Shown one piece after another: positions 2,806 through 63,566 of a stretch of 64,000 nucleotides of DNA (positions within the stretch are counted from its first letter, which is position 1; each line of letters starts with the position of its first letter). Source of the DNA: a phage. The stretch is from the NCBI GenBank assembly GCA_025611195.1, contig GCA_025611195.1_4718.1; one strand, written 5' to 3'. The notes beneath the pieces are model-generated. The model was not told the DNA's origin. It made no database searches and saw nothing but the letters and a program-made list of their open reading frames with translations. Both the position numbers and the translations under genes were made by a program.

Positions 2806-3615
2806 TTACCATTGATTAAAGCTGCCCGCCTTAACGACATCACAGCGCAGATGGTTACGTAACTGATCCAGGAAGACGACCGGGCTATCACCAGACAACA
2901 TAGCCAGCGCGTGTTGACCGCCGGAACGAACAACGAGCTCGTCAACCATTGGTGCTGTGATTGGGAGATCGTACGCATCCATGATCGCTTTGGCTTCTTG
3001 TTCTACGTCTTTCTGAAACCCTTCCATCGTCGGAGAGTCATATTTGGTTGCAAACTCGATACCAGGCAAGTTGACGTAATCGTAAGTCATGACGCGAGTC
3101 ATAACACGGCGTCGCTCACGTTGCCAGATCTGAGGATCGGTTAACGCTCGAACAGAAAAACACACATTCACCAGCGGTGTTTCAAAATCCTTACGTAATG
3201 GATCACCGTACGGTCCGCAAGGAATAACATCACCCATCACCATCACGACGGGACGACCGCGACGATCGCGTCCAGCTTCTTCTAACCAAATCTTAGAAAA
3301 ACAATGGCTTACCTTCGTTTCTTCGATTCGTAATGCTCGCTGTAAAAAGCTGGTTGCATCCTGACCGATCTCTGGTTTAGGGTGACCGTATTCACCTTTC
3401 AATGAACGGTTACGTGCGTTTGTTTGCAGTAAACTGTTTTCCAGGAACAATGGTTTCGAACGCTCAAGCTCGTAATATTCTTCGGTATTGTTAAAGCAGT
3501 TAAATCCGCCGATAACACAGGTGTAGGCACCGTCAGCATTAGGACGGATAATACCTTTCTTATTCACACCAAGATAACTGGTGCAAACAAGATTACTAAT
3601 TGGTGGTTGCATCAT
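2806..3615 (-). CDS. hypothetical protein (269 aa)
   Basis: Long ORF; AAGGGG RBS upstream. Function not assignable from sequence. Confidence 0.55.
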   Translation of the reverse strand: MMQPPISNLVCTSYLGVNKKGIIRPNADGAYTCVIGGFNCFNNTEEYYELERSKPLFLENSLLQTNARNRSLKGEYGHPKPEIGQDATSFLQRALRIEETKVSHCFSKIWLEEAGRDRRGRPVVMVMGDVIPCGPYGDPLRKDFETPLVNVCFSVRALTDPQIWQRERRRVMTRVMTYDYVNLPGIEFATKYDSPTMEGFQKDVEQEAKAIMDAYDLPITAPMVDELVVRSGGQHALAMLSGDSPVVFLDQLRNHLRCDVVKAGSFNQW

Positions 3616-3694
3616 AACCCCTTTATAAGCAACTGAATGAAAAAAGCGTTACCTTCCCACGTTTACGTCAAGAAGGCGACGCGTAAGCGTTATA

Positions 3695-4426
3695 TCACCA
3701 TTCATACGATCCGGCGCACTGATGCCCCAATAGTACCAACGCGTCGTCTTTGGCCGCCAGATATTTCTCTAACGTTATCCGTGAAACAGACACATTAGAG
3801 AAATCCATCACACCTAAGCGATGATCGTAATGATTAATTTGCATCCGGTAATAACCTTTCTTTACCACCAGAAACTCACCTTGACGCAACCATAGCGGAA
3901 CGTTGTCAACCTCCGCATGGATATAAAACACCGGGCATTCTGTCGTAACAGAGTTTTCCTTTCCGTCGCTATCTGTAATCTTCCCTTTGGGAACAGCCGC
4001 GATAAAACATTCTCCGATACGCTCTGTTTGGTACCCGTTCGGATAACGCGGGTCATGAAATAACCAATGCTCATCGCTAATATCAACATCGGATAACAAC
4101 GTACGATGTGGGCGTAAGGCGATATCAAACGGAACACGATAGATAACGTACCCACCTAACCAATGGGATAAGTGACCACCGGAATAGTACTGCTTGATTG
4201 CGGTACTGTATCCGTATATGCAACCCATCAAACTACTGGATACACAGATCCTTGGAAACGACCCGTCTTCCATACGCAAGGTACGTTGAGGGATACGCGG
4301 CATCATCGTTTTCAGTTCGGTATCGGTGCTAATATGCAATAAACCGAAAGGAAGCGTTTTACTCGGCACCCACGCGCAACGTTCCATAATCGCTCTTGGG
4401 ACAATAGTCTCGATAGACGATAACAT
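3695..4426 (-). CDS. hypothetical protein (243 aa)
   Basis: ORF directly downstream of 4428..5138 in the same operon. Confidence 0.5.
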   Translation of the reverse strand: MLSSIETIVPRAIMERCAWVPSKTLPFGLLHISTDTELKTMMPRIPQRTLRMEDGSFPRICVSSSLMGCIYGYSTAIKQYYSGGHLSHWLGGYVIYRVPFDIALRPHRTLLSDVDISDEHWLFHDPRYPNGYQTERIGECFIAAVPKGKITDSDGKENSVTTECPVFYIHAEVDNVPLWLRQGEFLVVKKGYYRMQINHYDHRLGVMDFSNVSVSRITLEKYLAAKDDALVLLGHQCAGSYEW

Positions 4427-24406: not shown

Positions 24407-24427
24407 CATCATGAAGGTAATATAGTC
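24407..24427 (-). promoter_or_regulatory. early-promoter-like motif (21-nt GACTATATTACCTTCATGATG)
   Basis: Identical 21-mer also at 50903..50923; minus-strand gene start at 24325. Confidence 0.5.
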
Positions 24428-34974: not shown

Positions 34975-35006
34975 CCCTCCTCCTTCCCTTACGGGTTGGA
35001 GGAGGG
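34975..35006. terminator. family-A palindromic hairpin
   Basis: Stem CCCTCCTCC/GGAGGAGGG, loop TTCCCTTACGGGTT identical to 22122..22135. Confidence 0.5.
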
Positions 35007-35035
35007 TTATGCCGTCAAGCAAAAAAAAAATGATA

Positions 35036-36846: not shown

Positions 36847-37503
36847 TTAGCTTGCAGCATCTTCATTCGTATCAGGTTTGCTTCCCCCTAACAAACCGTC
36901 AAACAGACCCGTATGTTTCAGGTAGAAGAGAGCGATAGCGCCCATCGCTGCTGCGCTCGTCGCCGTTAACGCAACCCCAGCACGATACTGCCATTTACGG
37001 TCAGGCTTTTGATCAAGCGCCATACGACGCATGTATTCAGCCTCTGCTTCATTCCGATGAATTTCGGATTCTGCCAGACGGGCTAAGGTATCGCGGTCCA
37101 GGTTATCATAACGTACGTTCATGGTGGTTTCCTCTTGTTTGGAAGTTGATTGCTTGGTGAATTCTTGATCAACAGTCGTTTCGGTTGGTTCAAACGGCTG
37201 GTTGTTCATTTTCTGATCTTGATTGGTCATGATAGACTCCTTCGATTTTTGAGACGAAATTGATTTAAACCATCGTGGATGGAGGTATTCGGTTTTACAT
37301 GTACAGTTAAGTTTCTCGTGCATGAAAGCGTAAAAACGTTTTGCGCCTACACGTAAGGCTTTCAGCATTATCCATCCACGAGCACTCAAACGGTGTAGCT
37401 GTTGTGGTATATCTAGTTTCCTAGCCAAGCGAAAGTATCTTTCAATCACTTCGATAGGAAACCATTGTTGTTCCACATCGGTGAGACTGAAAGTCTTATC
37501 CAT
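36847..37503 (-). CDS. hypothetical protein with C-terminal TM segment, predicted early gene
   Basis: Start placed at ATG 37503 (MDKTFSL); CTATATTACCT motif 30 nt upstream. C-terminal hydrophobic ALTATSAAAMGAIALFYL. Confidence 0.5.
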   Translation of the reverse strand: MDKTFSLTDVEQQWFPIEVIERYFRLARKLDIPQQLHRLSARGWIMLKALRVGAKRFYAFMHEKLNCTCKTEYLHPRWFKSISSQKSKESIMTNQDQKMNNQPFEPTETTVDQEFTKQSTSKQEETTMNVRYDNLDRDTLARLAESEIHRNEAEAEYMRRMALDQKPDRKWQYRAGVALTATSAAAMGAIALFYLKHTGLFDGLLGGSKPDTNEDAAS

Positions 37504-37532
37504 GATTGAAATCTCGCTGGCTTGCTTCACCT

Positions 37533-37543
37533 AGGTAATATAG
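37533..37543 (-). promoter_or_regulatory. early-promoter-like motif CTATATTACCT
   Basis: 30 nt upstream of ATG 37503. Confidence 0.45.
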
Positions 37544-37652
37544 CCGTGAAAAATGTTGGAGTACATCGAATTCCACCACCGCGGCTATTTTATGGGCTAA
37601 GAGCCTAAACCAATCATCTTCGAAATCATCATCTACGAAACAGGAACCTATC

Positions 37653-38474: not shown

Positions 38475-38481
38475 TCATCGA

Positions 38482-38505
38482 GCCTGTCCTTCGGGGCAGG
38501 CTTTT
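38482..38505 (+). terminator. intrinsic terminator with UUCG tetraloop
   Basis: GCCTGTCC-TTCG-GGGCAGGC followed by TTTTAT, just after stop of 37653..38474. Confidence 0.65.
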
Positions 38506-38582
38506 ATGCTGCTAAATATCGGGAATAAGAATTAACAAAATAGGAAAATGGTGTGAATATAACACAAAGGAGGGAGATGATT

Positions 38583-38699
38583 ATGTTACTCATTCTAATG
38601 GAGAGGGCGTTGCTGGCGGGTATATGCGCATTCTCTGTTAAACACGCTGTTGCTATCATGACTGAAGAAAGGCGTAATACGCATAATGTATTACGCTGA
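38583..38699 (+). CDS. small hydrophobic peptide (about 38 aa)
   Basis: Below the ORF-track cutoff. AAGGAGGGAG RBS, MLLILMERALLAGICAFSVKHAVAIM..., stop 5 nt before next ATG. Confidence 0.35.
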   Translation: MLLILMERALLAGICAFSVKHAVAIMTEERRNTHNVLR

Positions 38700-38704
38700 A
38701 AACA

Positions 38705-39118
38705 ATGTCTGCATTAGTGTATGACGAGAAATCGTCGAGGCCCCCGTCTTCACGAGGGCCAACACCTATGCGCGACTATTTACCATCTACGAAACAAAGG
38801 GTTATAAACATGAGCAATTTGAATGTTGAATTTACTTCAACAACGCCTGTCATGAATGGCGTTGGTACTGAAACCAAGATCGTATTAGAACCCATTCCGG
38901 GGTTACGTGATCTCGGCGATTTTTACCAACTGATGCCACGTATACGGAAAGCCTTAAACAGCATCGATCTCGATTCTGATAAAGATTTCCAACACGATAC
39001 AGAAAATACCGATCATGTGCTGCTACCATCAGGAGTAGCAAAATTCACCTACACGCAAACATTGAAAGCCTCCGATGGTGAAATCCGTCGTTTTATTGTT
39101 GAAGTAGAAAGCGCATAA
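38705..39118 (+). CDS. hypothetical protein (137 aa)
   Basis: ORF; stop codon sits inside the flank of a family-A hairpin. Confidence 0.5.
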   Translation: MSALVYDEKSSRPPSSRGPTPMRDYLPSTKQRVINMSNLNVEFTSTTPVMNGVGTETKIVLEPIPGLRDLGDFYQLMPRIRKALNSIDLDSDKDFQHDTENTDHVLLPSGVAKFTYTQTLKASDGEIRRFIVEVESA

Positions 39119-46158: not shown

Positions 46159-46193
46159 CCTCCTTCCCCGGCCTTGGTGGCTAGGGAAGGAGG
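46159..46193. terminator. family-B palindromic hairpin
   Basis: Stem CCTCCTTCCC/GGGAAGGAGG, loop CGGCCTTGGTGGCTA (reverse complement of the loop at 14..28, one mismatch). Confidence 0.5.
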
Positions 46194-46208
46194 ATTATAG
46201 TTTATTTA

Positions 46209-50902: not shown

Positions 50903-50923
50903 CATCATGAAGGTAATATAGTC
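50903..50923 (-). promoter_or_regulatory. early-promoter-like motif (21-nt GACTATATTACCTTCATGATG)
   Basis: About 80 nt upstream of ATG 50821, at the edge of the AT-rich non-coding region. Confidence 0.5.
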
Positions 50924-51557: not shown

Positions 51558-51589
51558 CCTTCCTCCAACCCAACAGGGAAGGAGGAAGG
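51558..51589 (-). terminator. family-A palindromic hairpin
   Basis: Stem CCTTCCTCC/GGAGGAAGG, loop AACCCAACAGGGAA; T-rich tract follows on minus strand. Confidence 0.5.
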
Positions 51590-63525: not shown

Positions 63526-63557
63526 CCCTCCTCCAACCCATCAGGGAAGGAGGAGGG
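63526..63557. terminator. family-A palindromic hairpin (reverse orientation)
   Basis: Stem CCCTCCTCC/GGAGGAGGG, loop AACCCATCAGGGAA. Confidence 0.5.
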
Positions 63558-63566
63558 AATATGTTG

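Follow-up and report, generated by a model that had tools for sequence, protein, structure and literature searches.

Downstream of the gp5 gene of a phage closely related to the Escherichia coli jumbo phage vB_EcoM_Goslar lies a very short open reading frame (ORF). The question it raises is whether this frame is a gene at all and, if it is, whether its protein, the act of its translation or the RNA that carries it is what matters to the phage. We examined it within what we call the window, the whole 64,000-nucleotide stretch of phage DNA that was analysed. The window is about 93% identical to Goslar (MK327938 / NC_048170), the sole match of a 1.8-kb query around the ORF. Goslar itself, a member of the genus Goslarvirus, is a nucleus-forming jumbo phage with a genome of 237 kb. 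As regards a host origin, the region showed no similarity to E. coli genomes.

The initial annotation presented the ORF as unannotated, a description that does not survive comparison with this relative. Sequence comparison identifies the small ORF as the ortholog of Goslar_00006 / HOV27_gp006 (QBO63799.1, YP_009820691.1), a 38-aa "hypothetical protein" encoded at 3610-3726 of the Goslar genome. It is therefore not unannotated in that relative, where it stands in both GenBank and RefSeq, and gene callers have also found it in many metagenome assemblies. A tblastn search aligned the small ORF to Goslar gp006 with 97.5% identity over 40/40 residues (E 2e-17). Within the 38-residue protein 37 positions are identical (T27 in the window against A27 in Goslar), there are three synonymous differences besides, and the exact window peptide falls into one 90% cluster with QBO63799.1. 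Goslar_00006 is flanked by gp005 (273 aa, with an annotated terminator after it) and gp007 (102 aa), and its position, start, stop, upstream terminator and Shine-Dalgarno (SD) sequence are the same as those of the window ORF. Only in the window, in contrast to Goslar, does the gp7 frame happen to run open up to an ATG at 38705. The order gp005-gp006-gp007 is kept in the fetched metagenomic loci as far as each contig reaches, the exception being locus L009, which is without gp5. The features discussed below are collected in Table 1.

Table 1. Sequence features between gp5 and gp7, in window coordinates.
Feature	Position	Strand	Basis
Terminator-like hairpin after gp5, GAGCCUGUCC-UUCG-GGGCAGGCUU, 10-bp stem followed by a U-run	38480..38507	+	Fold -18 kcal/mol, z -3.9
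Shine-Dalgarno sequence AAGGAGGGAG	38567..38576	+	Read from the sequence; kept with minor changes in 22/22 genomes
Upstream in-frame ATG plus one codon, alternative and less likely start	38577..38582	+	3 nt from GGAGG; variable codon
CDS of the 38-aa protein including stop, ortholog of Goslar_00006 / HOV27_gp006	38583..38699	+	97% identity; purifying selection; transcription in Goslar
Hairpin 1, perfect 9-bp inverted repeat GCGTAATAC/GTATTACGC giving 11 pairs in RNA, over the last 8 codons	38671..38697	+	-12.7 kcal/mol, z -4.3
Non-conserved ATG, false 35-codon extension of the gp7 frame in the window	38705..38707	+	Codon varies; no SD
Three-way junction: outer stem, GAAA-loop hairpin (38723-38736) and GC-rich hairpin (38739-38760)	38710..38772	+	-30.3 kcal/mol, z -4.4
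Hypervariable spacer / 5' UTR of gp7	38773..38809	+	Two main haplotypes; 1-nt indels
Next gene proper (102 aa), orthologous to Goslar gp7	38810..39118	+	98% identical to Goslar_00007; pN/pS 0.06

The ORF was said to follow a UUCG-tetraloop terminator and to carry a strong ribosome-binding site ahead of ATG codons at 38577 and 38583, and both observations hold. The hairpin is present and stable (Table 1), its counterpart is annotated as a terminator in Goslar (3508-3527), and its stem is invariant in 22 genomes, T-run length alone varying. No other gene start in the window has an SD sequence as strong as that of the small ORF, ordinary genes there having cores of 4-5 nt, and the SD/start region of the ORF is without significant local structure (z -0.86 against shuffles). 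Taken by itself an SD motif is nevertheless a weak argument, since elsewhere in the window AAGGAGG forms hairpin stems. Most AAGGAGG copies belong to a family of hairpins with polypyrimidine/polypurine stems (e.g. CCCTCCTCCTTCCC...GGGTTGGAGGAGGG), which we observed at 34975-35008, 46159-46194, 51559-51589, 63527-63558 and 2629-2655, none of them with a clear T-run after it.

Both ATG codons, and the peptide ascribed to the ORF, can be read directly. The start codon is most likely ATG 38583, which is favoured by its spacing from GGAGG (9 nt, against 3 nt for ATG 38577) and by the codon between the two ATGs, which varies among relatives (ATT, ATC, ACT or AAC, encoding I, T or N). The same start was chosen by the Goslar annotators and by most gene callers; one lineage has GTG at 38583 and has been called from the upstream ATG (P0013, 26 contigs). 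From 38583 the frame reads MLLILMERALLAGICAFSVKHAVAIMTEERRNTHNVLR and ends at a TGA stop at 38697-38699.

Support for a coding function comes from the pattern of substitution among relatives. We gathered 21 related loci via gp5 in viral contigs, via nine peptide variants and via gp7 in metagenome contigs. A first substitution count (N=18, S=11), drawn mostly from loci fetched by protein variants, was rejected as biased, since a non-redundant protein database enriches replacements, each variant having to carry one. The unbiased set comprises the 12 genomes reached through the neighbouring genes gp5 or gp7, independently of the ORF itself. Here 15 of the 21 substitutions in the small ORF are synonymous and six are replacements (pN/pS 0.12), a test that consists of these 21 substitutions among relatives that are all close (peptide identity of at least 87%). 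The same comparison gives 1.16 and 2.62 for the other two forward frames and 0.06 for gp7. Codon positions 1, 2 and 3 of the small ORF carry 5, 2 and 14 substitutions, and the synonymous excess has a binomial P of 3.5e-6, or of 1.5e-4 in a randomisation that preserves the mutation spectrum by keeping each base change and placing it at random. The replacements, six in all, are conservative: M/V in the start codon, then H/R, A/T, M/I, T/A and R/K. Conservation in related genomes had been proposed as a check on the ORF, and the frame is intact throughout: across 22 genomes there are no indels or stops inside it, and the indels that do occur lie outside it, at 38499 and 38514, in the T-run and around 38796. 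In the wider population 433 contigs carry the Goslar allele and 80 the window allele, and the common variants differ at residues 21-31 only. The C-terminal NTHNVLR is invariant, which could stem from the RNA hairpin described below instead of from the protein.

A natural deletion bears on the same locus. In L009 (ena:ERZ28649724 scaffold_1, 2781-2846) most of gp5 (~700 nt) is deleted, with short remnants left, and the terminator, small ORF, conserved fold and gp7 are intact despite the loss. We also considered an antisense ORF of 51 codons (38504-38659, minus strand) and rejected it, as relatives carry stops and many replacements in it. Its low pN/pS in the overlap (0.16) is a codon-phase artefact of third-codon positions shared with the real gene; outside the overlap, replacements and stops accumulate. 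Taken across all available relatives, these comparisons show purifying selection on the reading frame, on its strong ribosome-binding site and on the amino-acid sequence it encodes, and it is very probable that the ORF is a real gene selected for its protein sequence.

A further claim, that the ORF ends 5 nt before the next gene, proved mistaken. ATG 38705, which opens a 137-codon ORF in the window, has no SD upstream and is not conserved: in 22 genomes the position is A in 6, C in 13, G in 2 and T in 1, the codon being CTG, GTG or another in most relatives. Moreover, 1-nt indels near 38796 break the extended gp7 frame in 10 of the 22 genomes, and Goslar gp007 is annotated from the ATG equivalent to 38810. 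The next gene does not begin at ATG 38705 but at 38810, and the gap between the stop of the small ORF and the gp7 start is 110 nt. The last part of this gap is variable, the 39 nt of 38771-38809 having 18 segregating sites, plus indels. Such hypervariability is seen just upstream of both the gp7 and the gp5 starts (38773-38809 and 37550-37624). Segregating sites there number 17-20 per 50 nt, and indels occur alongside two main haplotypes, in contrast to the invariant blocks on the side.

Published read counts from Goslar at 30 min place the gene in the infection programme. Reads for HOV27_gp006 numbered 111/137/117 in the control and 1/1/1 under ChmA knockdown, with 411/584/499 and 1/1/6 for HOV27_gp005 and 284/383/350 and 1/1/4 for HOV27_gp007 (Armbruster et al., 10.1101/2023.09.20.558163, Supplementary Table 2). 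The leftward genes gp001-004 were unaffected by the knockdown (Armbruster et al., 10.1101/2023.09.20.558163). Since ChmA knockdown preserves solely the early programme of the infection vesicle, the loss of gp005-007 argues that these genes are non-early and depend on the phage-nucleus stage. Read densities of the three are similar once read length is allowed for, and we assign gp006 with good confidence to the middle/late expression class. Non-early expression of gp005-007 also fits the report of gp7 as an abundant virion-associated protein, present at >200 copies per Goslar virion (10.64898/2026.04.21.720040); the Goslar virion proteomics text makes no mention of gp6.

The gp006 transcript may arise from a promoter of its own or by read-through of the terminator, both of which are compatible with the Goslar counts. 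The phage does not use the host RNA polymerase, and a sigma-70 promoter scan gave nothing useful. TATG, the late-promoter motif of phiKZ (PMC7598289; PMC12809450), occurs at 38505-38508 and at 38767-38770, the latter site lying at the end of the three-way-junction segment. We rejected it as a reliable late promoter, because it is not kept upstream of gp5 in Goslar itself, where the site reads TATA.

Several other short motifs were observed in the window. Four exact copies of CTATATTACC lie on the minus strand (1712-1721, 24416-24425, 37534-37543 and 50912-50921). The copy at 37534 immediately precedes the leftward gp4-gp1 operon. In Goslar the orthologs of these genes are early and are still expressed when ChmA is knocked down, and CTATATTACC is a candidate early (virion RNA polymerase) promoter motif. 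The 16-nt motif CATCNTCTNNNAAACA has three plus-strand copies in the small Goslar cluster (L001 2653, 3656 and 3808), against an expected count of 0.04 in L001 for a pattern that was defined after two copies had been seen. Two of these Goslar copies lie 10-13 nt upstream of the gp5 and gp7 starts and one within the small ORF; in the window the motif occurs at 37627-37642 and 38629-38644. The palindromic 9-mers GCGTTAACG and CGTTAACGC are the commonest 9-mers in the window, each with 10 occurrences when both strands are counted (e.g. 5659, 16502, 20850, 36964, 43179, 46299, 51692 and 52235).

Turning to the protein, AlphaFold2 predicts a single helix over residues 2-37 (mean pLDDT 86). The mean Kyte-Doolittle score is 1.97 over residues 1-19 and the hydrophobic moment is low, and the C-terminal tail TEERRNTHNVLR is polar and basic. 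The initial annotation suggested a small hydrophobic, membrane-located peptide. Hydrophobicity and the single predicted helix stand, and insertion into a membrane follows less readily: the charged pairs E7-R8 and K20-H21 break up the hydrophobic stretch and, among 19-residue segments, only the first two and the ninth exceed the Kyte-Doolittle threshold of 1.6, which together make insertion uncertain. We regard membrane association of the 38-aa protein as a tentative proposal, somewhat short of probable. The sequence LAGIC was rejected as a lipobox, as it has isoleucine at -1 and C15 is replaced by R in one variant. Tryptic peptides expected from the 38-aa protein include ALLAGICAFSVK, HAVAIMAEER and the C-terminal NTHNVLR.

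Homologs appear to be confined to Goslar-like phages. None was found beyond them by tblastn of phage records or by a word-indexed search of 5.8 billion proteins, nor did a profile search of 1.84 billion representatives return one, the only extra profile match (P0010) being a repetitive, spurious protein. Searches of Pfam, PHROGs, NCBIfam, PADLOC and PDB sequences gave no match to the 38-aa protein, and the window holds no paralog of the small ORF. gp5 has a single remote homolog, in Erwinia phage pEa_SNUABM_9, and no small ORF comparable to gp006 follows it there.

The 3' end of the gene belongs to a second conserved feature, a predicted fold spanning 38671-38772. In hairpin 1 the only stem changes are G38671A and C38673T, both of which keep pairing, and the sole further change is in the loop. 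The core pairs of the three-way junction are canonical in all genomes, and the variable sites of the block are unpaired or wobble-compatible. Folded jointly, hairpin 1 and the three-way junction reach a z of -4.9 on the plus strand, and the minus strand folds equally well, which leaves room for an element that acts as DNA, for instance a promoter or a site of protein binding. The 71 nt of 38700-38770 have 4 segregating sites in the first set, of 14 sequences, and 5 across the 22 genomes, and the last 28 nt of the ORF have 1; by comparison the adjacent spacer has ~46 per 100 and synonymous sites have 57-69 per 100. Double compensatory changes are absent from the block because it is almost invariant, so that structure is read from stability and invariance only. 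Rfam has no family for the block (a chance mir-101 match at E 5.7 lies far below the gathering score), ARAGORN detected no tRNA in it, and the window contains no second copy of the fold. On these grounds 38671-38772 is likely to be a functional RNA or DNA element.

Several readings compete with that of a protein-coding gene. The ORF could be a chance frame within a conserved non-coding regulatory region, as the entire interval from the terminator to gp7 is conserved, the ORF has just 38 codons and its translation is itself deduced. Such a region would not be expected to show three-periodic substitution (5/2/14) and a synonymous excess specific to the frame of the ORF, to lack indels only inside it, or to place a strong SD at the correct spacing, and we consider this reading very improbable. 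A peptide resembling type I toxins, which would damage the membrane late in infection (e.g. through depolarisation or lysis timing) and might be controlled by an antisense RNA, has somewhat more to recommend it. Toxins of the Fst/Ldr type are shorter than 40 aa and combine a hydrophobic helix with a charged tail at the C-terminus, a description that the 38-aa protein recalls by analogy. More broadly, gp006 has in common with Fst, Ldr, TisB and Hok a length below 60 aa, one predicted helix, a hydrophobic N-terminal part, a charged tail and a structured mRNA (here highly structured in its 3' part), and its late-class expression would suit such a role. Unlike these toxins, gp006 is a middle/late gene of a lytic jumbo phage, its SD is exposed and not sequestered, and it has no evident antitoxin RNA, a sigma-70-like scan having given no antisense promoter and no antisense gene signal having been found. 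Nor is there a toxin-family match in Pfam, NCBIfam or PADLOC, even at E up to 1-10, or any sequence match to the type I families tested (Hok/Gef, Ldr, TisB, Fst, Ibs and ShoB). Lysis genes are not adjacent, and the hydrophobic segment carries internal charges. All told, a toxin-like peptide is improbable. A holin or other phage lysis membrane protein was rejected as well: holins have at least one transmembrane domain, a charged C-terminus and typically at least 60 aa, and are encoded beside an endolysin, whereas gp006 has 38 aa and its neighbours are gp5 (of unknown function), gp7 (a virion protein), and thymidylate kinase and RuvC-like genes.

The two readings that involve the downstream RNA differ in what the ORF is for. 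As an alternative to a membrane peptide, the initial annotation offered a leader peptide. In a reading of this kind the small ORF would be a regulatory upstream ORF, and ribosomes translating it through hairpin 1 would refold the RNA beyond and thereby control how gp7 is expressed. The ORF lies on the same strand as gp7 and is co-regulated with it, and its stop codon sits at the 3' foot of hairpin 1, so that a terminating ribosome must melt hairpin 1 and would reach the base of the three-way junction. In having a short ORF upstream of a same-strand gene and a hairpin over the ORF end, gp006 resembles the attenuator leader peptides TrpL and TnaC. It differs from them in that no U-tract follows hairpin 1 or the three-way junction, no terminator/antiterminator pair is apparent, 110 nt including a hypervariable spacer separate its stop from gp7, and the peptide is constrained along its full length (pN/pS 0.12), unlike ORFs in which the act of translation alone matters. 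When the ORF was forced to be unpaired, no alternative pairing was predicted, and in the eight genomes with the gp7 start located the unpaired probability of the gp7 SD showed no consistent change (0.51-0.65 against 0.44-0.66). Furthermore, transcription in nucleus-forming phages is reported to be physically separated from translation (10.1101/2024.03.21.585822); if that report extends to this phage, the coupling on which TrpL and TnaC depend is unavailable and classical attenuation is excluded. Given these points, a leader peptide is quite improbable. A dual-function locus, in which the ORF is translated and its 3' half is selected as structured RNA (38671-38772), would be compatible with a functional protein and in no conflict with it. 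The structured RNA would then be either a small RNA in its own right or a cis-acting element that affects gp7 expression or the stability or processing of the mRNA. In its favour are the scarcity of segregating sites in the block compared with near-neutral sites, folds far more stable than shuffles (z -4.3 to -4.9), variable positions that are all unpaired or pairing-preserving, and synonymous sites that never vary in the hairpin stems, compared with 14 of ~20 that do elsewhere in the ORF. Against these stand the lack of double compensatory changes, of an Rfam match and of a second copy in the window, the equally good fold of the minus strand, and the presence nearby of other segments just as invariant, e.g. 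37425-37524. We judge the dual-function reading unlikely, yet well within consideration. AzuC/AzuCR and SgrT/SgrS are bacterial small membrane proteins and dual-function RNAs, and the gp006 locus is like them in placing a very short ORF within an RNA that also bears a conserved structured segment. It differs from them in having no homology to either, and neither base-pairing targets nor a separate RNA function found support here.

The explanation that we favour as a whole, with moderate confidence, is a genuine protein-coding gene, the ortholog of gp006, encoding a small helical accessory protein that acts late. Under this explanation the gp006 mRNA would be translated efficiently from ATG 38583, and its product, 38 residues long, would form a single alpha-helix that is hydrophobic over about 26 N-terminal residues and ends in the short basic tail TEERRNTHNVLR. 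The protein would most likely sit in or on the host inner membrane, or bind a partner through its hydrophobic helix, and would serve as a small accessory protein late in infection and not as a regulatory leader peptide. Our best guess at its function is a membrane-associated late accessory protein. The last eight codons would at the same time supply an arm of the RNA fold, which is strongly conserved and extends a further 75 nt beyond the ORF, and this fold probably has a cis-acting role of its own, in the gp006 mRNA or in the gp7 message.

As a gene, gp006 is nothing new, being already a hypothetical protein in GenBank and RefSeq and an entry in a published expression table; the conserved fold is the only element at the locus with some novelty. 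Late mRNAs might carry it as a signal for stability, processing or export/translation, or it might exist as a discrete small RNA. It is a rather unlikely possibility on present evidence that nucleus-forming jumbo phages have, in the ~100-nt fold, a functional RNA element not described before, which would make gp006 a locus with both coding and RNA functions.

For the annotation of these phages, the start at 38705 is a trap, and an unusually conserved folded segment lies ahead of the true start of gp7, an abundant virion protein. The ORF upstream, gp006, can now count as a real, selected microprotein gene and not as a gene-caller's guess. Should the 38-aa protein prove to be membrane-active, Goslar-like phages would have in it a small factor of their own that acts late. 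Should the fold prove to be a functional RNA, few cis-acting RNA elements would have been defined earlier in a phage whose transcription and translation are kept apart.
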